Source of the DNA: an uncultured bacterium
Lineage (GTDB): Bacteria > Bacillota_I > Bacilli_A > RFN20 > CAG-826
DNA: 64,000 nt
Assembly: GCA_949297445.1 (NCBI GenBank)
Contig: CASFSS010000014.1
Span: forward strand, 6,819 to 70,818
Direction: 5' to 3'
Shown here: positions 4,965 to 29,440 of the stretch, piece after piece
Numbering within the stretch: position 1 is the stretch's first letter
Layout of the letters: each line of letters begins with the position of its first letter
Made by a program: the position numbers and the translations under genes
The notes under the pieces: generated by a model
Seen by the model: only the letters and a program-made list of their open reading frames with translations
Database searches by the model: none
Told to the model about the DNA's origin: nothing

Positions 4965-4997
4965 TAACAAAAGATTTAAAAATAAAGGAGAAATAAA

Positions 4998-7088: not shown

Positions 7089-7730
7089 ATGATTTCAAAT
7101 AACAATTTGCTATGGCGATATTATGTAAGAACGGGAAAACAAATTTTTATTTTACTGCCATTATTTTGTTTGTGTTTTTCTTCTTGCTCAAATTGACTTA
7201 AATATTCAAAAGGATACGACCATGAAATTGAGCTATCGCCTATTGAAACGGCTTATTATTTAGAAAAAGATCAATTTGGGTACAATGAAGATGTAAATGT
7301 TTGTATTAGTTACGGACATAATGGAGTAACTAATAATATTCCTGATGAAAATAAAAATTTACCTTTTTGCTTATTTTTGAATTATGGCAAAGAAGATTCA
7401 GAAAGCGAAAATGATTATAGACAATATAACGGATTCGAACTTATTGAAGAGGTCGAGCCAAAAAAATATAAAAATGATTATTTGTATTCTCATGATGGAT
7501 ACAGTTCAAAAAGATTTAATCATACGGTTGATTTTACATTTCTTATGATTATTTTGAATCTCTTTTGTCTATAATAAAACCCCATATAGCACATCATTCA
7601 AGTTTGTCGCTGCTCAGTTTTATAAAGACAAAAAAACTAATCCATATATATATGACGCAAGATGTGCTGAAATAGAGTTTAATTTTTCGATTAATGCAGA
7701 CAGCCAGAATATAAAATTAAATTTTAAATA
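7089..7730 (+). pseudogene. Degraded lipoprotein gene
   Basis: ATG 7089, signal KQIFILLPLFCLCFSSC, in-frame TGA at 7194-7196, same frame continues through ORF 7377-7574, further frameshifts near 7540-7580. Confidence 0.55.
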
Positions 7731-9025
7731 ATTGACATCATATTGCCCAATGCTGTGCTTTCAATAGGTCCTTTTATTACTTTTATTCCGGTTATTTCTT
7801 CGATTAAATTATTTAAAAGTTCATTTTTAACGCCGCCGCCAAAAACGGTGATAGTTTGATATTTTTTCTTTGTTATTTTTTCTAAATCTAAGATAGTTTT
7901 ATTGTATAAAAGGGCTAGCGAATGGAAAACACTGAAGTATAGTTCGCCATCATTGTCTGGTTCTTGATATCCACTAGCTAATAATAATTTAATTATTTTT
8001 TGTTTTAAATTTTTTGGCGAATGAAGTGTTTGATCATTAACATTAAATGTTCCGTCATAATGTCTATTCGCTTCGGCTAATAAAACAGCTTCCTTAATAT
8101 CAATATGTTTTGTGTTTTCTTTGATTAATTCATTTATTAGCCACATTCCGGTAATATTTTTTAAGAAACGTATTGTATTCTTTATGCCTAATTCATTTGA
8201 TAATCCATCTTTGTATGCGTTTTCGTTTATAATTGGATGTATTAAATTCACACCGATTAAACTCCAAGTGCCGGAAGACAAAAGTATCGAATCATCTTTA
8301 GCGTTAGAGCCAAAAAACGACGAAGCAGTATCGTGCTGAAGCGAAGCATAAACTTGTGCTTGATATCCAACTGTCTTTGCGATTGCATCCTTAAATTTAC
8401 CAATCAAGGTGCCGCTTGCTATAGGCTTAACTAAAAAGTCTCTTTTAACATTGAGCATATTCATTATTTTATCAACTGGTCTTTTTGTTCTTGTGTCAAT
8501 AATGCCAGTGGTGGACAGACTAGAATACTCGTTATTCAAAACACCGGTTAATAAATATGTTAAATATGATGATAACATTAGAAAATGTTTCGCGTTTTTT
8601 AATCTACCAGTTCTTTTATCATCTAGTAGTTGATAAATGGTGTTATATCCTAATGGTTGTACACCTGTTAGGAAAAACATCTCCTCATTCCTATTTAATG
8701 ATTGCATGACTCGATATCCGCGATCATCGCGATATGAATAAACAGGATAAATAGCTTTTAAATCAGCATCTAGCAAAACATAGTCTACACCAAAAGTATC
8801 AATGCCAATGCGCGAAGGAATTTTCTTTAGCTCTTTGGCTACTTGAAGGCCTTTTAAAACGTTTTCAAATAAATCATCGATATCCCAATAAAAATGGTCG
8901 TTTTCTTTGATGATTTTTGTTTGAAATCGATATATTTCTTCGATAATTAATTCGTTGTTTAAATAATAACCGATTATGTGTCTTCCCGAGGTAGCGCCTA
9001 TATCAATCGCCAAATAATATGTCAT
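7724..9025 (-). CDS. rhaB: Rhamnulokinase
   Basis: LAIDIGATSGR, IGIDTFGVDY, YRDDR, HDTASS, SSGTWSL, RFLKNITGMW, GGG..N, ESTALGN; adjacent to rhaD and rhaA. Confidence 0.95.
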   Translation of the reverse strand: MTYYLAIDIGATSGRHIIGYYLNNELIIEEIYRFQTKIIKENDHFYWDIDDLFENVLKGLQVAKELKKIPSRIGIDTFGVDYVLLDADLKAIYPVYSYRDDRGYRVMQSLNRNEEMFFLTGVQPLGYNTIYQLLDDKRTGRLKNAKHFLMLSSYLTYLLTGVLNNEYSSLSTTGIIDTRTKRPVDKIMNMLNVKRDFLVKPIASGTLIGKFKDAIAKTVGYQAQVYASLQHDTASSFFGSNAKDDSILLSSGTWSLIGVNLIHPIINENAYKDGLSNELGIKNTIRFLKNITGMWLINELIKENTKHIDIKEAVLLAEANRHYDGTFNVNDQTLHSPKNLKQKIIKLLLASGYQEPDNDGELYFSVFHSLALLYNKTILDLEKITKKKYQTITVFGGGVKNELLNNLIEEITGIKVIKGPIESTALGNMMSII

Positions 9026-9846
9026 TTCAAATATCCTTTAACAGGAGTAACATTAAATCTTTTTGCGACATCTTTGATGCCTTGATCAGTTATATCGTTA
9101 ATAATTTCTAGATGATTATGTGTTAGTAAAAATATCTGCGCTGATTTTTCAATGGTTTCAATTAGTCCAAAGGCATCATCAAGATTATTTTCGCAACCAT
9201 AAATGCCGTGTAGTGGCCATATTACGCATCTTGTTTTTTTCATTTTTTCTGCTGTTTCTTCGCCGATTTTTTGCGTTCCACATACTTGCCAAGGAATTAA
9301 TCCGACGCCATCAGGATAAACAATTACACTTTCGGTCATTGTTCGCCACAAATCGACCGTCAAAGATTTTTCATCCAATTTGTGCACGTGCGTTAGCGCT
9401 AAAATGTAAAGAGGATGCGTATGCATGACAACGTGGTGGTTAGGATCGATTTTTAATCTCGTTGAATGACATAATAAATGTGCGTAAATTTCACTCGTAA
9501 ATGTTCCATTATTTTCAAAGCCCCATATTACTTCTGCTTTCGTACCATCTTGAGATATTCGCATTACTCCGATGTTTGTCTTTGGATCATTTTTAACATT
9601 TCGAAAATATTTTGTTGTGCCGGTAATAACGAAAACCAAGCCTCTAATATTTTCGTTTGCAATTAAGGGAAGGGGAATGGTTCTTTTCGTTTTGGCTTTG
9701 CCAAACACTCGTTTAACTTCTTCCTCATCCATTAAAACAGAAATATTTCCGCCATTTTTTTCATCCCAGCCTAGACGATACATGTTATCGATGATTTCGA
9801 TAAACTTTTTTATTGTTTCGCTTTTATTGATAATGTTGGCTTTCAT
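9022..9846 (-). CDS. rhaD: Rhamnulose-1-phosphate aldolase
   Basis: GWDEKNGGNIS, KYFRNV, TSE..AHL, VMHTHP, HGIYG, FGLIETIEKSAQI. Confidence 0.95.
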   Translation of the reverse strand: MKANIINKSETIKKFIEIIDNMYRLGWDEKNGGNISVLMDEEEVKRVFGKAKTKRTIPLPLIANENIRGLVFVITGTTKYFRNVKNDPKTNIGVMRISQDGTKAEVIWGFENNGTFTSEIYAHLLCHSTRLKIDPNHHVVMHTHPLYILALTHVHKLDEKSLTVDLWRTMTESVIVYPDGVGLIPWQVCGTQKIGEETAEKMKKTRCVIWPLHGIYGCENNLDDAFGLIETIEKSAQIFLLTHNHLEIINDITDQGIKDVAKRFNVTPVKGYLK

Positions 9847-9848
9847 TT

Positions 9849-11108
9849 TTATTTCCTCAGCGATTGAACATCTTTTTCGTACTTTTTAAGGGCAGCTAAT
9901 GCCTCTTTGCCACCGGGAATGTTATGACTTTCTAAAAGATAATTCCAAACATCGTTATATGGTAAGTTATTGCTTTCTTCAATGTAGAATAATCTAGAAG
10001 AATAGTCGCGTTCTAATTCCATTTTTTGCATTAATTCGGTCGGTTCTAACAAGGCGTATAAAAGAGCTTTTGCCGTTGCTCGTAAACCGATTGCCCACTC
10101 GAAAACACGGTTTATTGAAGCGTCGAAGAAATCTAGGCCGATTGCCACTTTATCGAGCAAATCCGCTCGTTTTAGTTCTAACATTAAATTATTTAAACTA
10201 TCGTTTTCAATAACAGTATGATCTGAATCCCAGTGCAAACTTCTAGAAACATGGAGCATAACGTTTTTTACAAACGGCTCGATTGCTGTAATTTTATCGG
10301 ATACATCTTCGCCTTCTCGAAAATGACCCGCATCAATTGTTACACCTAAATTATGACTAGCAGCATATCCAATATAAAATTCATGACTACCACAAACGAA
10401 ATATTCTGAACCAATTCCAAAATACTTGCCTTCTAATACATCAACTGCATATTTTTCTTCTTCTTTTGTATATGGAACGCCGTAAATTTCGTCTAGACCG
10501 TCGATTAATCGCTTTCGAAATTCTTTGCGATTGACCGTAATGTCTTTTAAGCCATCAGGAATCCAAAAGTTGTTATAGCAAGGCTGGCCTAATGCCTTAC
10601 CGATTTCTACCGCGCATCTTCGGGTTGATTTTCCAACTTCAATCCAATATTCTCGCACCTTTTTATTTGGAGAGCATATTGAAAGACCATCATCCATCAT
10701 TTTCGAGGAAAAGAAAGTGCCATTTAAATCTAAGCCAATGCCTATTTTTTTCGCCCAAGTAATCCATTTTGAAAAATCTTGACCAGTGAGCTTACTCCTT
10801 TCGGTTTGGAATTCGGCATAGATTGAATGGAGTTGAACTTTATGTTTAAGCGGTGATAAGGAAAAAGCCATCTCAATATCTTTTCTAAGCTCATCGCCGT
10901 TTCTAGCCGCATAAGGATAATTGCCAACAACGGTATTTTCGTTTTTGACTCCTTCGACATTTTCAAAGCCTTTAATGTCGTCACCTGCCCAACATTGTAA
11001 AGAAATGGGAATATTCTTAAATTTAGCGATTGCCAAATCGACATCGACGCCGTAAGATGCATAAATTTTTTTTGCTTCGTTAAAACGATTAATTGTCTCT
11101 TGCTTCAT
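9849..11108 (-). CDS. rhaA: L-rhamnose isomerase
   Basis: SLQCWAGDDIKGFE, GNYPYAARN, LHSIYA, WIPDG, KYFGIGSE, GSHEFY, DAGHF, LHVSR..WDSDH, GLDFFDASINR. Confidence 0.95.
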   Translation of the reverse strand: MKQETINRFNEAKKIYASYGVDVDLAIAKFKNIPISLQCWAGDDIKGFENVEGVKNENTVVGNYPYAARNGDELRKDIEMAFSLSPLKHKVQLHSIYAEFQTERSKLTGQDFSKWITWAKKIGIGLDLNGTFFSSKMMDDGLSICSPNKKVREYWIEVGKSTRRCAVEIGKALGQPCYNNFWIPDGLKDITVNRKEFRKRLIDGLDEIYGVPYTKEEEKYAVDVLEGKYFGIGSEYFVCGSHEFYIGYAASHNLGVTIDAGHFREGEDVSDKITAIEPFVKNVMLHVSRSLHWDSDHTVIENDSLNNLMLELKRADLLDKVAIGLDFFDASINRVFEWAIGLRATAKALLYALLEPTELMQKMELERDYSSRLFYIEESNNLPYNDVWNYLLESHNIPGGKEALAALKKYEKDVQSLRK

Positions 11109-11239
11109 AAGAGCCTCCTATGATTTATACCTTTATATTATTTAATAAATTAATAATACGCAAATCATATTTTTCGCATTATTATTTATTGCAAATTAAT
11201 CAAAATCAATCAATAATTAAAGCAGGTGGAATAAAAAAT

Positions 11240-11998
11240 ATGTTTATCAATGAAAGACAACAAGAAATATTAAATTTAATCAAAACATATAATACGATTA
11301 GCGTTGAAGAAATATGCAAAAAAATATATGCTTCGCCGGCGACAGTAAGACGCGATTTAACAGACTTAGAATTACATGGTTTAATTCGCCGAGTTTGGGG
11401 TGGCGCTTCTATCATGGACGCCTCTTCTGGCGAAATATCATCGTTCATTCGCCAACAAACAAATGTGCAAGAAAAAAAACGAATGGCTCACGCTTGCATC
11501 GAATTTTTAAAAAACGATAGTTCATATTTTTTTGATTCTTCTTCTACCGTTAGCCATATCATCCCACTCTTAAAGAAAATTAGTGGTGGAATCGCCATTA
11601 CTAATGGGTTGTGTTCGGCTAATGCCCTCTCGAATATATCGACAATTAAGTCATTTATGATTGGTGGCGAAATCCAGACTCAAACAGGCGCATCAATCGG
11701 TGGTAATGCCGTCGAACAATTGGCCAATTTTTATTGTGACGTCTGTTTCTTTTCTTGCCACGGCTTTTCCCTTACTGGACCTAATGAAGGCACCATTGAC
11801 CAACAAAAAGCCAAGGCGATGATGATAAGAAACTCTAAGTTAAAGATATGTCTAGTCGATCATACGAAATTTAATAAGCAGTTTTTTATACAAACTTGTA
11901 GCATTTCTGATATCGATGTTTTAATAACTGATAAAATGCCCGAAGATGAATATCTTGATGTTATTAACAAAAACAATGTTCGCTTAATTGTTGTTTAA
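11240..11998 (+). CDS. DeoR/GlpR family transcriptional regulator (probable rhamnose regulator)
   Basis: ERQQEIL, SPATVRRDL..LE, DSSST, ITNGL, LVDHTKF; divergent from rhaA; ATG 11240 preferred over 11120. Confidence 0.9.
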   Translation: MFINERQQEILNLIKTYNTISVEEICKKIYASPATVRRDLTDLELHGLIRRVWGGASIMDASSGEISSFIRQQTNVQEKKRMAHACIEFLKNDSSYFFDSSSTVSHIIPLLKKISGGIAITNGLCSANALSNISTIKSFMIGGEIQTQTGASIGGNAVEQLANFYCDVCFFSCHGFSLTGPNEGTIDQQKAKAMMIRNSKLKICLVDHTKFNKQFFIQTCSISDIDVLITDKMPEDEYLDVINKNNVRLIVV

Positions 11999-12129
11999 GT
12001 ATAAATTGATAAATAAGCAAAAATAATCAATATTAGTCAAACTCGATAATTTAGTTGAGATGAAACTTTTGTTTATTTTATAATGGCATTGAAAGAAACA
12101 ATATGTGAGTTAATTTATAAGGATTTGTT

Positions 12130-13998
12130 ATGGCGAATTTATCTTTAAAACATGTTTATAAGGTCTATCTAGATGGAACCATGGCTGTCAGCAATTTTGA
12201 CCTAGAAATCGAAGAAGGCGAATTTGTGATATTAGTTGGCCCATCAGGTTGTGGAAAATCGACGACTTTAAGAATGATTGCCGGCTTAGAAGATATTACT
12301 GCCGGCGATTTATATGTTGCTGGTAAATACGCGAACTTAATGGAGCCAAAAGATAGAAACATGGCGATGGTTTTTCAAAACTACGCTTTATATCCTCATA
12401 TGAATGTTTATGAGAATATGGCTTTTGGCCTACGTATCAAGCATCTTGATAAGACCAGCATCGACAACCGCGTTAAAAACGCTGCCGAAATACTTGGATT
12501 AACTTCGCAATTAGAGAAAAAACCGAAAGATATGTCCGGCGGGCAACGACAAAGAGTCGCTTTAGGAAGAGCCATTGTGCGTAATCCGTCCGTTTTCTTG
12601 CTCGATGAGCCGCTTTCAAATTTAGATGCGAAGTTGCGTGCATCGATGCGTACCGAAATAAAAAGATTGCATAACACGTTAAAAACAACCTTCATCTACG
12701 TGACTCATGACCAAATTGAAGCGATGACAATGGGTACAAAAATTGTGGTCATGAATAAAGGTGTGATTCAACAGGTCGATTCTCCAATGAATCTATATGA
12801 TTATCCGTGCAACATGTTCGTAGCAGGTTTTATTGGCACGCCACAAATGAACTTTTTCGATGCAACAATTTTTGTTGATGAGACAACTTTGAAATTGCGT
12901 TTAGGCGACAATTTGTTATCATGTCCGCTTGCTTTATTTAGAAAATTAGACTTGCTAGAGGTTTTCCAAAATCCAAATGTTAAATTAGGAATTCGCCCCG
13001 AGCACATGAGGTTGGCTGATGAAAGCGTTCCTAATGATCAATGTTTGCTCGTCAATGTTAATTTGGTGGAGGCTTTAGGAAACGAAACGGTGGTTGAAGG
13101 AACCATCAAAGGTAGCGAGCATCAAATTTCGATTAAAATAAATCGCAATGATTTGATTAAAGAAGGCAGCGAAATAAAAATATCGATTGATTTTTCAAAG
13201 ATTCATATCTTTTCAAAAGAAACGACGAACTCTATTTGTCCGCGCATTCCAACGCATAATTATTTGAAATTTAGTAATAATTTATTTGGCAAGAAATTTA
13301 TTTTTCCAAAGAAATTATTCGATGCGCTTTCCGAATATAAAGATTTATATATTGAATTTCCTATTGACGCCGTGATAAAGGGTGACGATTATTGCGCTAG
13401 TGTTTTATCGTGCGAATTAACCAACCAAGGTTTTTATTTACTAGAATTGCAATTAAAAGGTGGCCAAATTTTATTTGCCGTTAGTGAAGAAAACATAAGT
13501 GCTGGCGATTATCATTTTTCAATCAAACAAGAGAATATATCATTTTATAATCATGTAGATAAAGTTCTATCATCAATACCTCGATTTAACCATGTAAGAG
13601 GAAAATTGGTTCCTAACAAGCGACCGGTATTAACTGGCAAAAAAATGAAAAAAAGAAAAGTCTTTGACTATTCAATTTTAGGCGTTTGCATTCGGCCAAA
13701 TGATGAAAGTGTGAATAAAATTTATGCTTTGCTAGGCAAAAAATTTCATTTGCACGATATTGATTTTTCCTTTTCGCCAGACGACGTATCTATAGCTGAA
13801 GAAGGAATAAAGGCAACCTTGCAAAATATTATCAAGTATAGTGACAATTCTATTTTTGGAGTGTTCAAACATGATGATGTAGACATTGTTGTTAAATTAG
13901 AATCTGATTCTTTAAATATAGGCCAAGAAACACATTTGGCTATCAACGCTGAGAAGATTAAAGTAAGAGATGTAAATTTTGATGTAATCATCATTTAA
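12130..13998 (+). CDS. Sugar ABC transporter ATP-binding protein (MalK/MsmX-like) with long C-terminal extension
   Basis: GPSGCGKSTTLRMIAGLE, MVFQNYALYPH, MSGGQRQRVALGRA, LLDEPLSNLDAKLR; 622 aa. Confidence 0.95.
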   Translation: MANLSLKHVYKVYLDGTMAVSNFDLEIEEGEFVILVGPSGCGKSTTLRMIAGLEDITAGDLYVAGKYANLMEPKDRNMAMVFQNYALYPHMNVYENMAFGLRIKHLDKTSIDNRVKNAAEILGLTSQLEKKPKDMSGGQRQRVALGRAIVRNPSVFLLDEPLSNLDAKLRASMRTEIKRLHNTLKTTFIYVTHDQIEAMTMGTKIVVMNKGVIQQVDSPMNLYDYPCNMFVAGFIGTPQMNFFDATIFVDETTLKLRLGDNLLSCPLALFRKLDLLEVFQNPNVKLGIRPEHMRLADESVPNDQCLLVNVNLVEALGNETVVEGTIKGSEHQISIKINRNDLIKEGSEIKISIDFSKIHIFSKETTNSICPRIPTHNYLKFSNNLFGKKFIFPKKLFDALSEYKDLYIEFPIDAVIKGDDYCASVLSCELTNQGFYLLELQLKGGQILFAVSEENISAGDYHFSIKQENISFYNHVDKVLSSIPRFNHVRGKLVPNKRPVLTGKKMKKRKVFDYSILGVCIRPNDESVNKIYALLGKKFHLHDIDFSFSPDDVSIAEEGIKATLQNIIKYSDNSIFGVFKHDDVDIVVKLESDSLNIGQETHLAINAEKIKVRDVNFDVIII

Positions 13999-14007
13999 AA
14001 TTGCGCT

Positions 14008-14985: not shown

Positions 14986-14986
14986 T

Positions 14987-15910: not shown

Positions 15911-15919
15911 GAAAGGAAA

Positions 15920-17671: not shown

Positions 17672-18581
17672 AATTAAGCCAAAAATTATTTTGGATACTG
17701 ATATTGGCGATGATATTGATGATGCTTTCGCTTTGCTATTTTTGGTTGAGAGCAAAGCGTTTGATGTCTTGGGCGTTACAACCGTTTTTCGTAATACTAG
17801 ACAAAGAGCGCACATGGCCAAATATTTGCTCGATGTATTAAATAGTGATATCAAAGTTTACGCTGGTTGTGATTATCCGTTAATTTCTAATCCTGATAAG
17901 TTGAACGTTGAAGCGATTCAAAAGAAAGAGAAAAAAGATCGCTATGGAATGTATCAACTTCCTCAATGGAGCGAAGAAATGGAAAGCGCTCAATATGAAA
18001 AACAACATGCGGTGGATTTTATTATCGAACAAATACACAAATACCCTCATGAAGTTATCTTGTGTGGCGTTGGCCCTTTAACTAATTTTGCAATGGCGTT
18101 AAGAAAAGATCCTACCATCGTTCCCTTAATCAAAGAATTTCGTTTGATGAGCGGTGGACAGAATTTAAATTTTGCTGAATGGAATGTGTTTTGCGATCCC
18201 GAAGCTAGCTATATCGTATATAACTCAAATGTTAAGACTGTCTGCATCGGCATTGACACTACATGCAAATTAGGTTTGTCAAAAGAAGACATCGATAAAC
18301 TAATTCATTCGCAATCAAAGGCCATCAAAATTACTTATGACATGATGATGAAGTGGTTCGCGCATTATGCGTTTGAAGCACCTGTTATGCATGATCCGCT
18401 CGCAGTCGTATCTATTATTAAACCAAACTTATGCCAGTATGAAGAAAAACCATTGACTGTTGACTTATCAAATAGGAGAGGCTTCATAGTCCAAGACGAT
18501 AAAAAAGCTCATAAACTAACTATATCAACCGATGTTAATGTGCGCGAATTCATAAATATATTTATGAGTGTTATTTTATAA
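17664..18581 (+). CDS. Nucleoside hydrolase (IU-NH family)
   Basis: DTDIGDDIDDAFAL, GPLTN, AEWNVFCDPEA, MHDPLA. Confidence 0.92.
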   Translation: MNKIKPKIILDTDIGDDIDDAFALLFLVESKAFDVLGVTTVFRNTRQRAHMAKYLLDVLNSDIKVYAGCDYPLISNPDKLNVEAIQKKEKKDRYGMYQLPQWSEEMESAQYEKQHAVDFIIEQIHKYPHEVILCGVGPLTNFAMALRKDPTIVPLIKEFRLMSGGQNLNFAEWNVFCDPEASYIVYNSNVKTVCIGIDTTCKLGLSKEDIDKLIHSQSKAIKITYDMMMKWFAHYAFEAPVMHDPLAVVSIIKPNLCQYEEKPLTVDLSNRRGFIVQDDKKAHKLTISTDVNVREFINIFMSVIL

Positions 18582-18673
18582 ATTATTTTTTGCATCTTAA
18601 GATGTTTATTAATTGCCTAAGAAAGGGGGAATTAGTCAGTCAAATTAAAGGCTTAGCTGATTAATAAGACATT

Positions 18674-20320: not shown

Positions 20321-20340
20321 AATAATCGTTGGAGGTAAAT

Positions 20341-22911
20341 ATGAAAACATTCTTCGCTCGTCTATCGTTAATTGCAACTGTTGGTTGTCTTGCTTTGGCA
20401 AGTGCTCCTATTTCAAAAAGTGTCGATTATGTTCAAGCCGCATTATCGTATGAGGGGGATTTTGTTTTGGGAGCAAAGGTTGATTTTTTGGCCAATTCCG
20501 ATGAACAATCAACCGATTATGTCAGTGTAAATTTGTCTGATACAACAAATAACGGAACAAATTTCTTTGTAAGATTAAAAAATTTAACGAGCGAAGATGT
20601 TGATTTGCATCTTGTCGTAGAGAGTGTTAATGGCCATGGTTCCACAATTAAAGCTAATGGCCGATACACTCTCTATGATGAAACCGGTGAGATTCCCCAA
20701 TCTTATACTTCAATCAGTGGAGAATTCTTTACGCTTCCAAAAAATTTCAATGGCTATTTTTCGATTACAAATTATAATTTAGCGAGTCAAGAAGGTTGGT
20801 CTGGCAACGAAGGAAGTGAAAAAGATATTAAAAACTTGCGTGCTCTCCATTTTGGCGTGTGTGGCGGTTTATATGCTGGGGTAAGCATAGGAATTGGTGA
20901 TATTTTTACGACCGACATTATGAATTTGGATGTTTCTAGTTTAGACGAAGAAGTTTTTCTAAGCACATTTGCGCCAATGAATGATTCGCCATATGTAGAA
21001 ATTACTCGTTTACCGGAAACGGATTTTGATGCGAATCATGATATGGATGGTGGTGTGTTAGCTACCGTTCAATATATGAGCGAAGACATTTCAAGCTATT
21101 GGCTAATCCATCCAAAAGATAATAATTTATCTTCGACAGGTATTTATTTTAGATTGCAAAATGGGTGGGCGTATGGTTACTGGATTCAATTTTATATATT
21201 GGATGGTAACGGCCATCGCATGATGTTAGGTTTAAAACAAAATATTTATCAATATGATAGCCAAGGAAAAAATAAAGAAATTAAAACCAGCAGGGAATTT
21301 GGCTCATATTTTTATATCGATGGATTATTTGACGGCTTTATTTTTATTCCTTATGCTTCTTTGGTTGACGATTCTACTTGGTCTGGCAATCAAAGCGCCC
21401 CGACCATGGATTATACAAATGTATATTCATTAATATTTGGACTATCAACAAAATATGATTATTCGGCGCAAACAATGTTTGGCGATATATTTACAGATAA
21501 CACAACTGTTTTTGATGGAAGTGAAGTCGGTCTAGACGAAATTGATACATATTTTGAAGCTGATGTTTATGGAAATGGCAATTACATAAATTTATCGCGT
21601 TTAAAAGGATATAAAGAAGAAACATTTTTGGATTATAGCAATGTCAAAAATTATCGTGAAACGACGATAACTGGCGGCGTAAAATTTAATGTAACGCAAG
21701 GGGAGGAAGATGTATTGCCCTCCTTTATCATTGATTACGATTTTGATTTTCAAAATCAAATTGCCATTGCCATAAGGCTTAAAAACTATTCTTATGACTA
21801 TCCATATAAAATTGTTGTTAAAGACGATAGTGGCAGACAATGTTCGCTAGAAGGTAAAATACTTGGCAACGTTTATTATTTGGATTTAAACGGTAAGTGC
21901 GTCGCCAACGATTGGGGAGGTAATCCAATTTTTGCCAAAATACCGATTGGCTTTGATGGTTTAATGATTATTCCATTTGCCTCGTTAGGCGGTGGGACAC
22001 ATTTAAACTTATCAAAACTGACCAGTTTAGAGTTTTTCGTCAGCTCAAAGTATGATTATGGCTTCGATGTGGCATTTGGGGAAATTGGCGGCATAGATAA
22101 AAATCTTACATTTAATTCTCTATTATCTCCTAATGATTTGACCGACGAAGAGTGGAAAAACATTTATAAATTAAACGAATACGCAGAACTTGGTCATATT
22201 ACAAGAGTAGAAGAAGAGGCGCTTTGTCCAATGATTGGTGACACCAAAATTTTAAATTCATTAATTTATGATAGCGACGAAGAGATGGCTAACGAGTTAT
22301 TGACCGATGACGCCGATAATCCGCTCACTTACGAGCGAAGTCCGGATGGTTTACTCATTACTCCCGGCGAGTATGAAGTAGGACATGCGAACGGGCCGTA
22401 CTCTTGTTTGGTTTTATTGAATAATTCTAAATATGCCGACAGGACTACAATGCAATTGAGCGATGGTACGCTCGCAAAAGGATTGACATTATATGTTAAA
22501 AATCTTTCCTCGAGAGAAATTGGTATCTCACTAGGTTTTGATCAAATTTTAGAAGACAATAAAATTCAGCGTTGGACTTTGATTGGATATCCATCAATGT
22601 ATTATGGTTACGATATAAATGTTGATGCAGAATACACTTTTTATTGCAAGCGTGACCAATTTCAAATTCCAGTCGGCTTTGAAGGATATATTCGGATTCC
22701 CTTTTCTTCTTATGGCGTGCCAGATTGGTCGAGTACCAATCAGCCTTTAGATATAACTTCTTTAAGTGGCAATTTATATTTGTCACAAGATAATCGTAGT
22801 TATGCTGGATTACAGTATTTAGTGAAAAATGTTGGTGTTTATTTTAAAACGACAGCGGCCGCTAGTTTGTTTAATGAGGAAAACACCATTAAATCAAACA
22901 TGGGTTTATAA
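20341..22911 (+). CDS. Secreted protein with four CBM-like repeats
   Basis: RBS GGAGGT, signal peptide, four copies of the same repeat (FNGYF, FDGFIFIPY, FDGLMIIPF, FEGYIRIPF); no C-terminal TM. Confidence 0.8.
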   Translation: MKTFFARLSLIATVGCLALASAPISKSVDYVQAALSYEGDFVLGAKVDFLANSDEQSTDYVSVNLSDTTNNGTNFFVRLKNLTSEDVDLHLVVESVNGHGSTIKANGRYTLYDETGEIPQSYTSISGEFFTLPKNFNGYFSITNYNLASQEGWSGNEGSEKDIKNLRALHFGVCGGLYAGVSIGIGDIFTTDIMNLDVSSLDEEVFLSTFAPMNDSPYVEITRLPETDFDANHDMDGGVLATVQYMSEDISSYWLIHPKDNNLSSTGIYFRLQNGWAYGYWIQFYILDGNGHRMMLGLKQNIYQYDSQGKNKEIKTSREFGSYFYIDGLFDGFIFIPYASLVDDSTWSGNQSAPTMDYTNVYSLIFGLSTKYDYSAQTMFGDIFTDNTTVFDGSEVGLDEIDTYFEADVYGNGNYINLSRLKGYKEETFLDYSNVKNYRETTITGGVKFNVTQGEEDVLPSFIIDYDFDFQNQIAIAIRLKNYSYDYPYKIVVKDDSGRQCSLEGKILGNVYYLDLNGKCVANDWGGNPIFAKIPIGFDGLMIIPFASLGGGTHLNLSKLTSLEFFVSSKYDYGFDVAFGEIGGIDKNLTFNSLLSPNDLTDEEWKNIYKLNEYAELGHITRVEEEALCPMIGDTKILNSLIYDSDEEMANELLTDDADNPLTYERSPDGLLITPGEYEVGHANGPYSCLVLLNNSKYADRTTMQLSDGTLAKGLTLYVKNLSSREIGISLGFDQILEDNKIQRWTLIGYPSMYYGYDINVDAEYTFYCKRDQFQIPVGFEGYIRIPFSSYGVPDWSSTNQPLDITSLSGNLYLSQDNRSYAGLQYLVKNVGVYFKTTAAASLFNEENTIKSNMGL

Positions 22912-22921
22912 GGAGGGCATT

Positions 22922-24022
22922 ATGAAAAAGCATCGAATCGTCTCACTTTATATTCTTGCTACTTTGATGGTTCTATCGACGAGTTGCCAAGGATCACAAT
23001 TAAAAACTCCTAGTGGTATCAATCCAATTTGGATTGATGAGGTCGGATATTTATCGAAAGCAGCGACAGTAATTCAAGAAGATAATGCCCGTTACGTTAT
23101 TTATGAGACAAATGAAAAAATCAACGATGAAACAATTTCCTTTGCACTTAAAATTGGTCATTACGAAAATGATGCCTGGGAATATTCGGATCGCCAAATT
23201 ATTTTAAAAGGTAGCGACTCTTCTTGGGATAAATATATTTTTTCACCTAGCGTCATTAAAGGCGAGTTTAAAAAAGGCGCCGAAACATATAATTATTTGT
23301 TGGCCTATGGTGGCAGAAAAACTTTAAATGACATAGCTAACCAAATCGGAATTGCCTATGCCAAAGAATTAACTGGGCCTTGGATTAAACATCCTGAACC
23401 ATTAATAAAATATGATGCCGGTATTTATGGGGATGAATATGGTGCTGGTGCGCCTAGCTTAGTTAGTTACGACAAAAAAGGAAAGGTAAGAATTTTTTAT
23501 AGTTATGCCGAAACCAATTTGGCCAACGAGCGAGTTCTTGACGCCGATTTATCTGACTTAAATAACATCATTTTGGATAAAGGTACAAGACAAATCTCGG
23601 TCGATGGGTTGAGGGATAATGCCGATATGACCATTTTAGCTAATGCGGATTTTGCTTTAGATGAAAACGATACTCTTTACGTTGTTCGAGATGTATATCC
23701 TTTATCTAGCAATATTCCAGGCAACGCGACAAGTTTACAAGTCGCTAAAGCAAACGTGAAGATTCTTAACGATTTTGTCAATTACTCTTGGGAAGTTATT
23801 GAGACATTTAATTCATCGAATACGATTGATTTTGATGATCCGGAATCTATGGGCTGGGATGAAATATATTCGGCGGCCTTTGTTCGAGATTCATATGGAT
23901 ACATCAGTTCAACTCAAGACAAATTAGAGTATATTTATTCAACGAGCGATGAACCAGAAGATATAAGCGATGAAACATATAAATTTTCACCTTTTTTAGC
24001 GATAAGGAGCACTAATTTTTGA
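22922..24022 (+). CDS. Lipoprotein, beta-propeller glycoside-hydrolase-like (degenerate motifs)
   Basis: RBS AGGAGG, lipobox LSTSC, SPSVIKGEF..YNYLLAYGG, NQIGIAYAKELTGPWIKH; paralog of 24019 and 26693. Confidence 0.75.
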   Translation: MKKHRIVSLYILATLMVLSTSCQGSQLKTPSGINPIWIDEVGYLSKAATVIQEDNARYVIYETNEKINDETISFALKIGHYENDAWEYSDRQIILKGSDSSWDKYIFSPSVIKGEFKKGAETYNYLLAYGGRKTLNDIANQIGIAYAKELTGPWIKHPEPLIKYDAGIYGDEYGAGAPSLVSYDKKGKVRIFYSYAETNLANERVLDADLSDLNNIILDKGTRQISVDGLRDNADMTILANADFALDENDTLYVVRDVYPLSSNIPGNATSLQVAKANVKILNDFVNYSWEVIETFNSSNTIDFDDPESMGWDEIYSAAFVRDSYGYISSTQDKLEYIYSTSDEPEDISDETYKFSPFLAIRSTNF

Positions 24023-26706
24023 TGACGTTTTTGCCTCTTTCGTTAATGATTTTAATGGGTATTAGTATGATGCCATCATCTTTCTTCAATTCTAATAATT
24101 TAGATAGGCTTGCGGAAACTTCTTCTATTAGCGAAGCGACGCTTTTGTTTGATTATGAAGTTGATGGCGATAAAAGATTTTATAATTATTGCCCAAGTAT
24201 TTTCGAAGAAAATGGTGTTCGCTATATTTATTATTGTACGAACAAAGAAGCCGGCAATGTTACCGATTATATAGGTTATCGCGAAGGCACATTTGACGGA
24301 AAGAAGTGGGTTTATTCCGACTTGCAAATTGTCCTATCTCCCGAAAGCGGCATGTGGGATCAAAGACACGTTTGTGATCCGAGCGTTATAAAAGGTCAAT
24401 TTACTTATAATGGACAAACATATAACTATTTGATGAACTATCTCGCTTCAAGCCAAGACGATTCTATGGGCAATGGAACCGGTTTTGCCGTAGCGACTTC
24501 TCCAAGTGGCCCGTGGATTAAATGCTACGATATCAATCCGTTTATTCCTTTTGATTCAGCGACAGATGTTTGGGGAAATGGCCAAACTTCTATGATAAAT
24601 TTAGATGGATTAGGGCACGTTTTGTATTTTTATTCGTATGGCGGCAAAGATGGGACGTATGAAATAGTTAGAGAATATGATTTGTCTAATTTAAATGATG
24701 CTAAATTGATTAGAAGCACCAAATTATCATTAAACGGATTAATTAGTGGTGACATAACGATTAATGATGCAGAATTTGTGCTAGATAAAGAAAATGAAAA
24801 ATTATTGATGGTGAAGGCGAAACATCCATATGTCGATGACGATTTAACACCAACATTTATTTCTTCTTCGCTGATTTTGTATATGCTAGATTTAAGCGGC
24901 GGTGAAAATTTAATTGATAAAATTTTTAGCGCCGATAGTTCTACTAAATGGGAATATATCGGAGAAATTGATAGTTCGATATCCGGTTTTCCTCGTAATC
25001 ATAATCCTGGATTAGTAACCGATGCATTTGGATTTATTTTAACGGATAAAAAACTCGATGTAATATTTTCTACAAGTATTACGAACGATGATTTTTGGAC
25101 TTATTTATCTACTTATCGTCTATATCAAACATCTATTCCGTTATCTTATGGTAAATTTTCAATGAACCGATTGAATAGCGGAGCAAAAATTGCTTTGAAG
25201 CAATCGACAAATGTCGATGATCTTTCAACTATTCGTGTGAATTTAAGCAGCAGCTCAATCACTAATGGAGAAGGACTATATTTTCGATTTCGAAATTACA
25301 CGACCGTCGATACTCCGATTGACATGCTATTTGAAAATAGTAGTGGCTATAAAGTTAAGCCAACTCCAAATGCAGAAATAGTTACCTATGATGTTAATGG
25401 CGATAATAAAAAGACCATTAGTTTTCGTGAATTTGGTAATTATTTAATGCTTCCGGCAATGTTTGATGGATATATTTATATTCCTTTTTCATCACTAACG
25501 AGTCAAGAAGAAGGCGAAAGAGATTTGTCTTCAATTAGATATATATATCTAACCATTTCTAATTATTACGATTCTTTTGCTAGTTTTTCCCTTGGAGATA
25601 TTTTTTCTAATCACCTCACCAATGTTGATGTTTCATCTTTATCAATGATGAATTTTAATTCAACATTTTTAGTTACTAGCAATTCAAAGTTAGTAGAAAT
25701 AAATCGTCTTCCGACTACTGATTTTGATCCAGCTGGACACGATTTATTAGGAGGAATTAGAATGACGATGAATCGGGACGAAAATGTTGATCGTCCTGCC
25801 CAATGGATTTTAAAAAGCAGCAACGCTGATTTAGCGGGTGAAGGCCTTTATTTTCGCCTAAAAAACAATCATTTTAATCCATATTATTTAATATTTTATC
25901 TTCTAGATCAAACCAATCATCGAATGGCATTAGCCCTCAATGCACCAATATTCTATTACGATTGTAATGCGACTTTATTATACGAAGGACAAGCGCGTGA
26001 ATTTGGTTCATATTTTTATGTTCCCGGAAGTTTTGATGGTTTTATCTATATTCCTTATTCATCATTAACAAATGACGCGACTTGGAGTACTAACACGTAT
26101 ATGCACTATGATAAAATAGCGCATATTTATTTAGGCGCCTCATCGATGTATGACTATTTGCTCGATATAACTTTTGGTGACGTTTTTACGACGAATTCGT
26201 TTTTATATGATGGAAGCGAGTCGCGTTATGACGATTTTGCGTTACATGCAGAAAAGGTTTGGGAAGCCGATTATGTTAATATTGAATACGCTGAAGGATA
26301 TAAAAGCGAAGCAACATGTTATGGCGAAGACTTTTTGAGTGATACATATCCTTGTTATGAAAAAGCATCAATCGTTTGGAATGATTATAAAGTGAAATTT
26401 AATAATTTAAGCGAAAGCGCTAGAAACGAGTTAATAAGTGCGAGTTATGCTGGGAAATCATACGATGAATGCACAATTATTGAACAATGTGTTTGGCGTT
26501 ACGATTTAGCGGTAAAAAATCAAGGTTTAGAAGATTTTATGAATAGAAACATTTCTTTGTTATCGACGAATAGTGTTGCCTTGAACGAGTTTAATAGTTA
26601 TCTTGGTTTTATCGTTTTTGGCGCGATATTGTTGATTTCATGTATACCTTGTTCGGTTTATTTATATAGTAGAGGAAAGGAAAAAGAAAAAAATGAAGAA
26701 AATTAA
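24019..26706 (+). CDS. Modular surface enzyme: beta-propeller glycosidase-like domain + two CBM-like repeats + C-terminal anchor module
   Basis: YNYCPS, HVCDPSVIKG, FAVATSPSGPWIK, RNHNPG; two repeats from about 25165; anchor module, TM helix and basic tail. Confidence 0.8.
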   Translation: MMTFLPLSLMILMGISMMPSSFFNSNNLDRLAETSSISEATLLFDYEVDGDKRFYNYCPSIFEENGVRYIYYCTNKEAGNVTDYIGYREGTFDGKKWVYSDLQIVLSPESGMWDQRHVCDPSVIKGQFTYNGQTYNYLMNYLASSQDDSMGNGTGFAVATSPSGPWIKCYDINPFIPFDSATDVWGNGQTSMINLDGLGHVLYFYSYGGKDGTYEIVREYDLSNLNDAKLIRSTKLSLNGLISGDITINDAEFVLDKENEKLLMVKAKHPYVDDDLTPTFISSSLILYMLDLSGGENLIDKIFSADSSTKWEYIGEIDSSISGFPRNHNPGLVTDAFGFILTDKKLDVIFSTSITNDDFWTYLSTYRLYQTSIPLSYGKFSMNRLNSGAKIALKQSTNVDDLSTIRVNLSSSSITNGEGLYFRFRNYTTVDTPIDMLFENSSGYKVKPTPNAEIVTYDVNGDNKKTISFREFGNYLMLPAMFDGYIYIPFSSLTSQEEGERDLSSIRYIYLTISNYYDSFASFSLGDIFSNHLTNVDVSSLSMMNFNSTFLVTSNSKLVEINRLPTTDFDPAGHDLLGGIRMTMNRDENVDRPAQWILKSSNADLAGEGLYFRLKNNHFNPYYLIFYLLDQTNHRMALALNAPIFYYDCNATLLYEGQAREFGSYFYVPGSFDGFIYIPYSSLTNDATWSTNTYMHYDKIAHIYLGASSMYDYLLDITFGDVFTTNSFLYDGSESRYDDFALHAEKVWEADYVNIEYAEGYKSEATCYGEDFLSDTYPCYEKASIVWNDYKVKFNNLSESARNELISASYAGKSYDECTIIEQCVWRYDLAVKNQGLEDFMNRNISLLSTNSVALNEFNSYLGFIVFGAILLISCIPCSVYLYSRGKEKEKNEEN

Positions 26707-27823
26707 TAGAGGGTTTTGTTTTGTAACGGTCATTTTGTGTCTAACTTCTTGTTCGCCCATGGAAGCAAAGCCGTATTATGCGCCAACTGATCAAGTGATG
26801 AAATGGTTTGATCACGGGACATTTGGCGAATCAAGATTTTATAATTACTGCCCTTCTACCTTTATTGAGGATGGCAAGCGCTATGTTTATTATTGCACCA
26901 ATCGCGATGAAGGAAATATTACAGATTATGTAGGGTTTAGAAGCGCTCAATATAGCGAAGATACTGGATGGGATTGGTCAGACATGGAAATAGTTTTAGG
27001 ACCAACCGAGGGAACATTTGACCAAAGGCATACATGCGATCCTAGTGTGACCAAAGGTAAATTTATTTATAATGATGAAACATATAATTATTTGATGGCA
27101 TATTTAGGCTCGATTCAAAGTGATAATAACGGAAATGAAATAGGTATAGCGGTTTCAAAAACTCCAGAAGGGCCGTGGATTAAATGCGATGAAATCAATC
27201 CGTTAATTCCTTATGACCGCGAAAACGCTATTTGGGGAACTGGTCAAGCATCGCTTGTTAATATCGATGGTGAAGGCGATATTTTAATGTTTTATTCAGT
27301 AGGCAATAAGGACGGAACTTATGAAGAAGTTCGAGAATATGATCTCTCTAATTTAAATGAACCTGTTTTGCTTCAGCACGCAAAGGTTCCTACCAATGGT
27401 TTGCAAAGCGGCGATACTTTAATCTGCGACGCCGATGTTTGTTATGATGTTGCCAACAAAAAGATGCTTTTGGTAAAGGGAAAAATACCATATTCACCAG
27501 ACGGTAATTCGCCGGCTTTTATTGCTGATAAACTTATAGTTTATTATATGGATTTAAGCAATTCTAGCAAACCGACAGATGAACTTTTTAAAGGCAATAA
27601 TGCTAGCAATTGGCGACTTCTTGGCGAAATAGGTTACGAACAAACAGGTTTTATGCGAAATCATAATGCCGGTTTATTGACAGATCCGTATGGTCATTTG
27701 CTTGAAAATACAGATTTTATTGAAGTTGCATTGACGCGTAGCGATATCGCTAATAGTGAATGGAACTGGCTTTCCACTTATCGAATATATAGTCTTTCGT
27801 TGCCATTAACATACATGGATTAA
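26693..27823 (+). CDS. Lipoprotein, five-bladed beta-propeller glycoside-hydrolase-like (GH43/GH32-like fold)
   Basis: Lipobox LTSC, YNYCPS, HTCDPSVTKG, NEIGIAVSKTPEGPWIK, RNHNAG. Confidence 0.78.
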   Translation: MKKINRGFCFVTVILCLTSCSPMEAKPYYAPTDQVMKWFDHGTFGESRFYNYCPSTFIEDGKRYVYYCTNRDEGNITDYVGFRSAQYSEDTGWDWSDMEIVLGPTEGTFDQRHTCDPSVTKGKFIYNDETYNYLMAYLGSIQSDNNGNEIGIAVSKTPEGPWIKCDEINPLIPYDRENAIWGTGQASLVNIDGEGDILMFYSVGNKDGTYEEVREYDLSNLNEPVLLQHAKVPTNGLQSGDTLICDADVCYDVANKKMLLVKGKIPYSPDGNSPAFIADKLIVYYMDLSNSSKPTDELFKGNNASNWRLLGEIGYEQTGFMRNHNAGLLTDPYGHLLENTDFIEVALTRSDIANSEWNWLSTYRIYSLSLPLTYMD

Positions 27824-27825
27824 TT

Positions 27826-28542
27826 ATGGGAAAGAGTTTTGAAAAAAGAACAAAATCAAAATGGTATTGGTCATTGAAAATAATGGCTGATTTAGTGATT
27901 GTTAATTTTATATTTACGATAATATCGATACTCTCACTATTTGTTTTATTTTTTCCCGGCATTATTTCTCTTACAACCACAGTTAATAAAATATTAAATG
28001 GCGAATATTATAATCCATTTACTACTTTTTTTGAACAAATTAAAGAACAATGGTCTTTTATGTGGCGACTTGAAGTTTTGGGCATGTCAATCATATTAAT
28101 TTTTGCCTTAGTTGCCTATGGATATTATGCTTACATCGTCAATTTTGGATACGATTGGATAATTTGGTTGGCCATTATTATTGTGGCTGTTACCGCACTA
28201 GTGTTCATTGTCTTATTCTTGCATTTAGTAATTTTCAATGAGTATTTTAAAAATGATACATTTTTTATGATGATTAGAAAGGCAGGAGTCATTGCTAGGA
28301 AAAAAGCGTGGCTTTCCTTTTTGATGATTTTATTTTTGCTAGCTTTTGCCGTCGTTTTCTTTCTTTTGCCCTTTTTAATTCCGTTTATTCCCTTTTCAAC
28401 ATTGGCCTTGATAAATTTATCTATTTCGAAAAAAACATACACTCAATTAGCGCTCGAAGAGCAAAAGCGGGAAATTTTAGAAGGCAACTTGTTTATGCCG
28501 GTTGTTTACGAAGATAAGTCCACTAAGCGAAAGGAGGACTAG
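27826..28542 (+). CDS. YesL/DUF624-like membrane protein
   Basis: Multi-TM, ADLVIVNFIF...FPGI..L pattern typical of carbohydrate ABC-associated DUF624. Confidence 0.7.
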   Translation: MGKSFEKRTKSKWYWSLKIMADLVIVNFIFTIISILSLFVLFFPGIISLTTTVNKILNGEYYNPFTTFFEQIKEQWSFMWRLEVLGMSIILIFALVAYGYYAYIVNFGYDWIIWLAIIIVAVTALVFIVLFLHLVIFNEYFKNDTFFMMIRKAGVIARKKAWLSFLMILFLLAFAVVFFLLPFLIPFIPFSTLALINLSISKKTYTQLALEEQKREILEGNLFMPVVYEDKSTKRKED

Positions 28543-28546
28543 CGTT

Positions 28547-29440
28547 ATGAAAAAAATTGCAGTTATCGGAAGCATAAATGTTGATACAACAATATATGTT
28601 AGTGCTTTTCCTAAGCCCGGTGAAACGACCACAAGCATTCGTAAAGAAACTGTTGTTGGAGGTAAAGGCTTTAATCAAGCTGTCGCCATCAAAAAAAGTG
28701 GCGTTGATGTCGATTTCTTTTGTACAATTGGCGATGATTATTTTGCTAATTTAGTTATTGATGCAATTGATGACAATAAAATTGCTTCGCATATTGATCA
28801 TAGCGACGTCAATACTGGTTCAGCTTTTATTACAATTGATAAAACCGGGCAAAATACGATTGTTTTAGATGGTGGTGCTAATAATAATTTTCAACCTTCC
28901 TATTTAAATGATGATTCTATTTTGGACAAATACGATATCATTTTATTAGAAAACGAAATCCCTCAAATAGTTAATGAAAGAATTATTAAAAAGTATGGTT
29001 CATCAAAGGTAATTATTTATAATCCGGCGCCAAGCAGGAAGGTTTCGAAAGAAATATTAAAAAAGGTCAATTATTTAATTACAAACGAAATTGAAATTCA
29101 GGATATTACGCACACCGATGATTTGACAACCGCTTTTAATGTCGTGAAAGATTTACATATTCCAAATGTGGTGGTTACCTTAGGCAATAAAGGAGCGATG
29201 TATCTTGGCGAGAATCTTTCTCTTTTTGTCCCGGCATATCGCGTTGAGGCAATCGATGCGGTGGCCGCCGGTGACACGTTTATTGGCTATTTCGTTTTTG
29301 GTTTAGTCAACGATTTAGAAATAAAAGAATGTTTAAAAATTGCCAATGCTGCCGGAGCAATATCTGTAACGAAGAAAGGTGCCAGTTCTTCAATTCCTAC
29401 ATTAAAAGAAGTAAAAAACTTTTTGAATAGTCTCCTTTAA
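28547..29440 (+). CDS. rbsK: Ribokinase
   Basis: GSINVD, PKPGET, GGKGFNQAVA, NPAP, NEIE, DAVAAGDTFIG, GASSSIP. Confidence 0.92.
   Translation: MKKIAVIGSINVDTTIYVSAFPKPGETTTSIRKETVVGGKGFNQAVAIKKSGVDVDFFCTIGDDYFANLVIDAIDDNKIASHIDHSDVNTGSAFITIDKTGQNTIVLDGGANNNFQPSYLNDDSILDKYDIILLENEIPQIVNERIIKKYGSSKVIIYNPAPSRKVSKEILKKVNYLITNEIEIQDITHTDDLTTAFNVVKDLHIPNVVVTLGNKGAMYLGENLSLFVPAYRVEAIDAVAAGDTFIGYFVFGLVNDLEIKECLKIANAAGAISVTKKGASSSIPTLKEVKNFLNSLL

Follow-up and report, generated by a model that had tools for sequence, protein, structure and literature searches.

The closest described system to the locus reported here is the rus polysaccharide utilisation locus (PUL) of Bacteroides thetaiotaomicron (BT2802-09). 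As the accessible text of Glowacki et al. presents it, this PUL encodes two ribokinases, a nucleoside hydrolase (NH), a surface lipoprotein glycoside hydrolase (GH), SusC/D and a permease (10.1101/574913). The same text reports that the NH, RusNH, cleaves p-nitrophenyl (pNP)-beta-D-ribofuranoside and acts only weakly on nucleosides, that the surface GH, of unassigned family, has weak cation-dependent activity on pNP-ribose, and that the PUL matters for gut colonisation, ribose-containing nutrients being a recognised gut resource (10.1101/574913). The enzyme content of rus loci is described there as highly variable across Bacteroidetes and the natural polymer as not identified (10.1101/574913; commentary PMC7527073). 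The locus described here lies in a 64,000-nt stretch of contig CASFSS010000014.1 (the window), from an uncultured bacterium (GTDB lineage Bacilli_A; RFN20; CAG-826) whose genome has 1.12 Mb and is 100% complete by marker genes. It encodes an ATP-binding cassette (ABC) importer, a divergent NH, five surface proteins including putative glycosidases of five-bladed propeller fold, a membrane protein and a ribokinase-like kinase, and it adjoins L-rhamnose catabolic (rha) genes. The chances are about even that it is a Gram-positive glycan utilisation operon built around ribosyl release and a functional counterpart of the Bacteroides rus PULs.

Set beside rus by gene content and published description, the locus appears to operate as a Gram-positive equivalent that relies on an ABC transporter and has a constant set of enzymes. 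As far as the accessible text on rus goes, both systems combine ribokinase(s), an IU-NH-family hydrolase, a surface lipoprotein glycosidase of unassigned family, a dedicated importer and a regulator, so that ribokinase, NH and surface GH occur in one regulated uptake locus here as in the published description. LacI proteins, the second most common regulators of rus-like PULs in that text, are the usual ones among relatives of this locus. Import differs, as an ABC transporter with a lipoprotein solute-binding protein (SBP) takes the place of SusC/D and the permease. The NH here is cytoplasmic and almost invariably accompanies the propellers, in contrast to the highly variable enzyme content reported for rus; the ribokinase, which is the core of rus, is optional here; and the anchored multi-repeat proteins resembling carbohydrate-binding modules (CBMs) set this locus apart.

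The preliminary description of this DNA had placed rhaADB and a DeoR-family regulator beside one co-directional run at 12130-29440. Both the gene content and the coordinates are borne out by the open reading frame (ORF) listing and by Pfam and NCBIfam scans, in which the rha genes and the divergent DeoR gene adjoin the run. The run consists of 12 plus-strand ORFs spaced by -14 to +92 bp (gaps or overlaps), with overlapping start and stop codons, in the order ATPase, permease, permease, SBP, NH, five surface proteins (A548, B860, C397, D895 and E376, all with signal or lipoprotein N-termini), membrane protein and PfkB kinase:

12130..13998, plus strand: MsmX/UgpC/MalK-type ABC ATPase, 622 aa; ABC_tran, OB_MalK and TOBE_2 in residues 1-361; NF008653 (UgpC), 464 bits
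14008-14985 and 14987-15910, plus strand: two ABC permeases (BPD_transp_1)
15920..17671, plus strand: large SBP lipoprotein, 583 aa; signal and lipobox-like N-terminus; weak SBP_bac_1 match
17664..18581, plus strand: divergent IU-nucleoside-hydrolase-family enzyme (the locus NH); Pfam IU_nuc_hydro 207 bits (cut-off 34.2); no signal peptide (cytoplasmic)
18674..20320, plus strand: A548; signal peptide, two CBM-like repeats, helical region and C-terminal transmembrane anchor
20329..22911, plus strand: B860; secreted, four repeats; distant loci retain its C-terminal ~320 aa
22829..24022 (likely start 22919), plus strand: C397; lipoprotein-like C-type propeller; no Pfam or NCBIfam match
24019..26706, plus strand: D895; E-type propeller, two CBM-like repeats, helical region and C-terminal transmembrane anchor; GH43 19.1 bits, below cut-off
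26693..27823, plus strand: E376; lipoprotein E-type propeller; partial GH43 Pfam match
27826..28542, plus strand: polytopic membrane protein, 238 aa, weakly MusI/YesL-like; NCBIfam MusI_fam 32.5 bits (cut-off 160)
28502..29440 (likely start 28547), plus strand: ribokinase-like PfkB kinase (RbsK); PfkB 184 bits; best model TIGR02152

Related loci were collected by a scan of one genome per species, and the window proteins were compared with them by tblastn. The 67 loci obtained come, by label, from Bacilli metagenome-assembled genomes (MAGs), Erysipelotrichaceae, Mollicutes, Acholeplasmataceae, Izimaplasma, Paracholeplasma vituli and Clostridia (e.g. Christensenellaceae and Gallimonas). The NH and the SBP are each found in 45 of the 46 loci with at least 7 kb upstream of the matched propeller, and in all 29 with at least 8 kb on both sides. 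Those 29 also include 12 with RbsK, 13 with a MusI-like protein, one with rhaABD and none with DeoR. The NH and the SBP stay linked to the propellers across Bacilli and Clostridia at only 31-50% identity, and by this comparison the NH-propeller link is nearly obligate. In the six loci examined in detail, the order is regulator, permease, permease, SBP, NH, B860-like protein, C-type propeller and E-type propeller(s), an order that recurs from Bacilli to Clostridia MAGs. Both propeller types occur in 42 of the 48 loci with at least two propeller ORFs, the C-type standing first in 42 of 42, and permease orthologues 50-78% identical to those of the window are present in 39-40 of the 67. Clustering of all ORFs in the 67 loci revealed no other recurrent enzyme. 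An opposite-strand ORF cluster in 11 loci (e.g. L022:8458-9597) has no Pfam match and was set aside as probably antisense ORFs.

The NH and the propellers thus appear, from their co-occurrence, to form a conserved functional unit, which RbsK joins in Bacilli. The preliminary description had read the locus as a Gram-positive-type PUL for a glycan containing rhamnose and ribofuranose, and had staked that reading beforehand on conservation of the NH and the ribokinase with the rha and propeller genes. The NH withstood this, the kinase did so in the Bacilli forms only, and the rhamnose part proved specific to the window's clade. A Gram-positive-type glycan utilisation locus is supported. Among 40 relatives of the window genome, only four have a propeller, and neither of the two in the same genus does; on this distribution the locus is accessory and patchy among them. 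Four of the loci (L007, L029, L030 and L049) were recovered in MAGs that bear the labels Bacteroidaceae, Alistipes onderdonkii, Acidiphilium and Parasutterella. With 49-74% identity to the window permeases, their permeases resemble those of loci with Bacilli or Clostridia titles, and mis-binning or mislabelling of these MAGs is likely.

The locus NH belongs to the IU-nucleoside hydrolase family (PF01156). Residues D11, D13, D16, D17, D19, D20, T140, N141, E172, N174, H243 and D244 are invariant in 31 orthologues, whose motifs are an extended Asp cluster (DTDIGDDIDD), T140-N141, E172-W173-N174, D178 and H243-D244. The motif residues align to those of solved IU-NHs, and we take the conserved positions to be the calcium-, ribose- and acid-catalyst residues of these enzymes. 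The Asp cluster and the TN, E-x-N and H-D motifs are shared with RihA/B/C, UriH and the Crithidia IU-NH. Unlike these enzymes, the locus NH has an Asp motif two residues longer than the canonical DxDxG-xDD and an invariant Trp in E-W-N, and it lies in a glycan-uptake operon, not in a salvage context. It also falls far below the equivalog cut-offs for RihA, RihB, RihC and UriH (142, 131, 112 and 93 bits against 450, 382, 459 and 433). A second NH in the genome scores 270-318 bits with the Rih/UriH models, again below the cut-offs and about twice the score of the locus NH, and because of this difference the locus NH can be regarded as a specialised clade apart from the housekeeping enzymes. In what we found, the activity of RusNH on pNP-beta-D-ribofuranoside, as the accessible text reports it, is the only precedent for an NH acting as an O-ribosidase.

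The second NH is of canonical Rih type and is paired with a PfkB kinase (G000:C18:249140-250929; L068:5141-6930). This pair probably serves ordinary nucleoside salvage. It resembles the clusters of RbsK and Rih-type NH that are taken, in the accessible text on bifidobacteria, as nucleoside-utilisation clusters (PMC13011590). For the locus RbsK, TIGR02152 is by far the best model (269.7 bits, cut-off 299.65). Because this score exceeds that of the second PfkB (225.8 bits), RbsK is the genome's best ribokinase candidate; together with an RpiB-family isomerase divergent from DeoR in a related genome (G046, see below), it suggests a link to ribose. In the cultured Paracholeplasma vituli 92-19, the locus NH is present as two ORFs of 158 and 122 aa (L045:4090-4984), pointing to a frameshifted or interrupted gene. 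Immediately downstream of the locus, that strain has a Mutator-family transposase and a DarT/Macro pair.

The five surface proteins had been described as secreted paralogs. All five do have surface-type N-termini, but BLASTP among them separates two families. The propeller family consists of C397, the N-terminal 380 residues of D895, and E376; D895 and E376 are 51% identical, and C397 is ~30% identical to both. E376 matches GH43 (PF04616) with 42.1 bits (cut-off 32.2), covering only positions 124-275 of the 288 in the profile. An AlphaFold2 model of E376, built with an alignment of 26 homologues, is an all-beta, five-bladed propeller (predicted local distance difference test score 91.9, predicted template modelling score 0.89). 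Foldseek places GH117 first (E-value: 9.5e-11, template modelling score ~0.6), followed by GH43, GH62, GH130 and GH32, and the Foldseek and VIA matches together include GH117, GH43, GH32, GH62, GH159 and GH183. Arabinofuranosidases, fructosidases, a galactofuranosidase and a D-arabinanase are among the fold neighbours. E376 is therefore predicted to have the fold of a five-bladed glycosidase propeller from a furanosidase-rich clan in which no single family stands out.

The locus propellers share blade motifs of the W-D..R-H-x-x-D-P type with GH43, GH117, GH62, GH32, GH159 and GH183, as well as the partial GH43 match of E376, but are only 8-15% identical to these families. A search of 1.84 billion representatives with the propeller profile gave 962 matches at E<=1e-3 and 278 at E<=1e-30. 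Since the matches at E<=1e-3 are so few, the family does not merge with GH43; it has no model of its own in Pfam or NCBIfam. The earlier suggestion of new-specificity propellers is thus sustained to the extent that the family is a distinct, uncharacterised member of the clan.

Two propeller types were separated from profile scores and column conservation. C53, C68, H113, C115, D116, H324 and N325 are invariant in the E-type, which thus has Cys and His where GH43 blades have acids. The C-type has D53 (61%), Y113, S116 and Y324 at the same positions. On the first inner strand, E-type propellers thus carry a Cys and 61% of the C-type an Asp. D110 is invariant in both types, and D252 is nearly so. 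Relatives of the propellers are fused to an SGNH esterase, a dockerin, a canonical GH43, CBM_4_9, a ricin-B domain with a type IX secretion system tail, Laminin_G_3 and LRR_5. These partners would be expected of a secreted carbohydrate-active module.

The second family is defined by a repeat of ~190 aa, with two copies in A548, four in B860 and two in D895. The repeats match no Pfam or NCBIfam model and no PDB sequence, and a PDB search with B860 likewise gave no meaningful match. Language-model feature neighbours, which serve as a lead only, are CBM11, CBM_4_9 and CBM65 for A548 (0.81-0.83) and SGBP_B_XBD, CBM30, CBM11 and Exop_C for residues 625-860 of B860 (0.90-0.93).

The importer appears to resemble the LplABC- and YesOPQ-type systems of Bacillus and Paenibacillus, in which a large lipoprotein SBP, two permeases, an MsmX-like ATPase and a YesL/MusI-type membrane protein belong to a glycan locus. 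The window locus has the same importer parts and an accessory polytopic membrane protein. It differs in that the operon includes its own ATPase gene, whose product has an extension of ~250 aa, and in that its enzymes appear unrelated to the pectin or galacturonide enzymes of those operons. The extension (window 13237-13998) has no Pfam or other family match; full-length ATPase orthologues that include it lie beside the locus in three related genomes (G046, G047 and G048) and in locus L010 (669 aa). The SBP orthologue in L010 matches SBP_bac_8, and the PDB entries nearest to the window SBP are 5gx8 and 5gub (41 bits). The name DUF624 given earlier to the membrane protein is weakly supported, as Pfam returns no match even at E<=5 and the MusI score lies far below the cut-off; these scans place the protein in none of DUF624, YesL and MusI.

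The rha genes and the features between them and the ABC operon are as follows:

7724..9025, minus strand: rhaB-like rhamnulokinase (FGGY); Pfam FGGY_N and FGGY_C; best NCBIfam model TIGR02627, 360 bits (equivalog cut-off 528)
9022..9846, minus strand: rhaD, rhamnulose-1-phosphate aldolase; NF002963, 313 bits (cut-off 170)
9849..11108, minus strand: rhaA, L-rhamnose isomerase; Pfam RhaA 477 bits; NF002203, 506 bits
11197..11213, plus strand: direct repeat TAATCAAAATCAATCAA, operator-like, between rhaA and DeoR
11240..11998, plus strand: DeoR-family regulator, 252 aa; HTH_DeoR and DeoRC domains; the listed ORF starts at 11120
12024..12040, plus strand: the operator-like repeat again, as TAATCAATATTAGTCAA, before the ABC operon
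12055..12084, plus strand: sigma-70-like promoter match, the highest-scoring one in the region (11 of 12) and 46 bp upstream of the start of the ATPase gene; it is a match to the consensus and no more, such sites being no more numerous in the region than in shuffled sequence

The window thus carries the L-rhamnose catabolic set RhaA, RhaB and RhaD by family membership, with RhaB under its equivalog cut-off. The true start of DeoR is likely to be 11240, because the ribosome-binding site AGGTGG precedes that ATG and orthologues of 252 aa exist. DeoR orthologues head the same locus in L070 (252 aa) and L069 (194 aa). The site orthologous to the rhaA/DeoR repeat lies at 9533 in L070, and L069 has a site at 5591, in the rpiB/DeoR intergenic region; sites orthologous to the repeat before the ABC operon lie at 10350 and 10360 in L070 and at 4790 in L069. 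The pattern TAATCA-N7-TCAW, derived from five of these seven intergenic sites and hence independent of two (L069 5591 and L070 10360), occurs in six of the six intergenic regions that flank DeoR in the three genomes. The chance expectation is 1.41, 0.30 and 0.14 matches per sequence, and the whole 1.12 Mb genome has 15 matches. Even with two independent sites, the positions are striking. Because the same operator-like repeat is present in all six regions, DeoR is likely to control both the ABC operon and the divergent rha (or rpiB) genes. A match also lies within the ATPase coding sequence, in a similar part of the gene in all three genomes (window 12787-12803, minus strand; L069 4015-4031; L070 12018-12034), and may represent either an operator within the gene or coding sequence that is merely conserved. 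One further genomic match near an intergenic region (C17:8933) was set aside; it lies beside uridine-kinase-family, isochorismatase and PFK genes and has no clear link to the locus.

In each of the three close lineages DeoR heads the locus, and one or more rha genes lie near it. In G047 (E376 79% identical), the operon of ATPase, permease and SBP genes is headed, as in the window, by a DeoR gene to which rhaA is divergent. In G046 (E376 75% identical), the RpiB-family isomerase is divergent from DeoR, and rhaD-rhaB-rhaA follow 3.3 kb past the locus, behind a toxin-antitoxin pair; this rhaDBA cluster has no TAATCA-N7-TCAW match. RhaA is encoded by three of five other carrier genomes and was not found in the other two. 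The rhamnose link proposed earlier is therefore not general, as rhaABD lies within 10 kb in only one of 29 loci and a LacI regulator is found instead in 33 loci. Within the window's own clade it looks real, and rhamnose appears to be a clade-specific, co-regulated addition. The preliminary description had also seen no GH78 or GH106 rhamnosidase and no rhaM, and this holds for the complete 1.12 Mb genome, in which PF17389, PF17132 and PF05336 have no match. The genome holds only one transporter of the locus type. Given these two facts, any rhamnose derived from this system would need to be freed by the propellers or the NH.

A model for the operation of the locus can be proposed. The membrane-anchored, CBM-like multi-repeat proteins (A548, B860 and the C-terminal half of D895) would hold an extracellular glycan at the cell surface, where the C-type (C397) and E-type (D895 and E376) propellers would cut it to small oligosaccharides. 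Import of the products would fall to the large lipoprotein SBP together with the permease pair and the long MsmX-type ATPase. The NH, the sole cytoplasmic hydrolase of the operon, would then remove a beta-D-ribofuranosyl unit from its aglycone, and RbsK would phosphorylate the ribose. In this clade, DeoR would recognise a common operator that precedes both the ABC operon and rhaBDA. Because this operator is shared, the aglycone or co-product is probably L-rhamnose, which would be catabolised by RhaA, RhaB and RhaD. We favour a ribofuranose-containing glycan as the substrate, with a confidence close to even. A more specific version, in which the NH is an O-glycosidase (a cytoplasmic beta-D-ribofuranosidase acting on imported units such as Ribf-Rha) and the propellers are a new GH family that breaks down polysaccharides containing ribofuranose (neighbouring microbes' capsules, O-antigens or exopolysaccharides), is possible and is put forward tentatively.

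Several points weigh against ribosyl release from such a glycan. RbsK is missing from 17 of the 29 well-flanked loci and rha from 28; gene content by itself links neither ribose nor rhamnose to the core. The dockerin, GH43 and SGNH fusions point at least equally to plant cell-wall glycans as to bacterial capsules. The CBM-like (glycan-binding, beta-sandwich type) label of the repeats is a lead taken from Atlas feature neighbours only, and the operator pattern counts two independent sites. We know of no natural ribofuranosyl-glycan hydrolase of propeller fold, and a literature search that included full text turned up no description of a ribofuranosidase or of this gene cluster. The residues of the propellers belong with these points. 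In GH43, catalysis uses an Asp base, an Asp pKa modulator and a Glu acid on blades I, III and IV. An attempt to map a GH43 or GH117 catalytic triad onto E376 with phmmer and hmmsearch gave two GH117 blade registers and a shifted GH43 register, and no triad was assigned. The best PDB sequence matches of E376 are GH117, with E-values of only 5e-6 to 1e-5 over ~100 residues. In that register E178 aligns to E303 of BpGH117, where H302/E303 is presumably the His-Glu acid pair, and E178 is absent from the conserved columns of the propeller alignment (A1). The differences between E-type and C-type at the candidate funnel residues could mean another chemistry or that one type is non-catalytic.

The alternative that survives best is a plant or dietary glycan with a different furanose, which we consider unlikely. 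The propellers would then be arabino-, galacto- or apio-furanosidase-like, the NH would have been recruited for a non-ribose 2,3-cis-diol furanoside (e.g. D-apiose) or for a side activity, and the kinase would not be a strict ribokinase. The arabinofuranosidases, fructosidases, galactofuranosidase and D-arabinanase among the fold neighbours agree with this, as do the fusions with dockerin, canonical GH43, SGNH esterase and ricin-B. Rhamnogalacturonans are pectic glycans that carry rhamnose, and the rha link of the clade would fit rhamnose-bearing pectic glycans. The kinase can be argued either way, as RbsK scores under the equivalog cut-off but ribokinase is its best model by a wide margin. 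The ribose-binding residues of the NH, however, are invariant, RpiB lies beside the regulator in G046, and the 67 loci contain no recurrent apiose, arabinose or galactose catabolic genes.

Scavenging of nucleosides or nucleic-acid-derived compounds is quite unlikely. In this case the NH would be a true N-ribohydrolase acting on imported, glycosylated or modified nucleosides, and the surface proteins would capture or trim conjugates for an auxotrophic bacterium with a reduced genome. The NH does retain the whole N-ribohydrolase active site, including the His-Asp pair, and clusters of RbsK and Rih-type NH are read as nucleoside utilisation in the bifidobacterial account cited above. However, a canonical Rih-type NH and PfkB pair is already present elsewhere in the genome. 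The locus NH forms a clade of its own, and 45 of 46 loci keep it together with GH-like propellers and a large SBP of the oligosaccharide type. The small genome (1.12 Mb) encodes many secreted Endonuclease I-domain proteins, one of them directly downstream of the locus (30625-33579, plus strand; 984 aa), for which tblastn gives at least six additional genomic matches (C4, C13 and C18), but the endonuclease is kept with the locus in none of the 67 related loci. The fusion partners of the propellers are carbohydrate modules, not nuclease or phosphatase modules. Mere adjacency of rha, NH and RbsK to an unrelated surface-protein operon, for which the absence of rha beyond the close clade and the separate G046 rhaDBA cluster (behind its toxin-antitoxin pair, with no operator match) could be cited, is highly improbable given the NH and SBP linkage in 45 of 46 loci across Bacilli and Clostridia at only 31-50% identity, the overlapping start and stop codons and the shared operator-like repeat.

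The surroundings of the locus contain genes of other kinds. Upstream of rhaB, a defence- or mobile-type patch (147-7033) encodes a type I restriction-modification specificity fragment, an AAA_21 ATPase, an HNH endonuclease and an HNH-associated repeat. Locus L001, from the same species, diverges from the window downstream of RbsK, and with the upstream patch this indicates that both borders of the locus are variable. A 533-aa ORF (33692-35293, minus strand) matches the thiol-activated (cholesterol-dependent) cytolysin family (120 bits), and a phosphatidylinositol-specific phospholipase C-like ORF lies near it at 42874-43797. The only clear classical GH seen in the window is a GH3 enzyme of 792 aa with an Fn3-like domain (46099-48477, plus strand), which neighbours genes for a NUDIX protein, an MFS transporter and an alpha/beta hydrolase.

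Release of ribose from a ribofuranose-containing glycan remains the reading that we prefer, and the locus represents a simpler and more rigid version of the rus idea, with one NH clade, two propeller subfamilies, a binding protein and one importer. Because the NH clade is nearly always locked to the propellers, the SBP and the importer across Bacilli and Clostridia, a few recombinant proteins could reveal the substrate. Such work would define a propeller family that has no Pfam or NCBIfam model (~280 clusters at 50% identity, E<=1e-30) and would test the recruitment of the NH fold for O-glycoside cleavage. DNA of the locus is present in animal-gut, faecal and chicken-gut metagenome runs from nine studies. 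The locus takes up ~2% of a 1.1 Mb genome, which argues for a central role in the niche of the organism. If the more specific and tentative version is true, with the NH as an O-glycosidase and the propellers as a new GH family, small-genome Firmicutes would possess a dedicated route to feed on the surface glycans of other bacteria, and the locus would name a natural polymer class of the kind suspected as the target of the Bacteroides rus enzymes.

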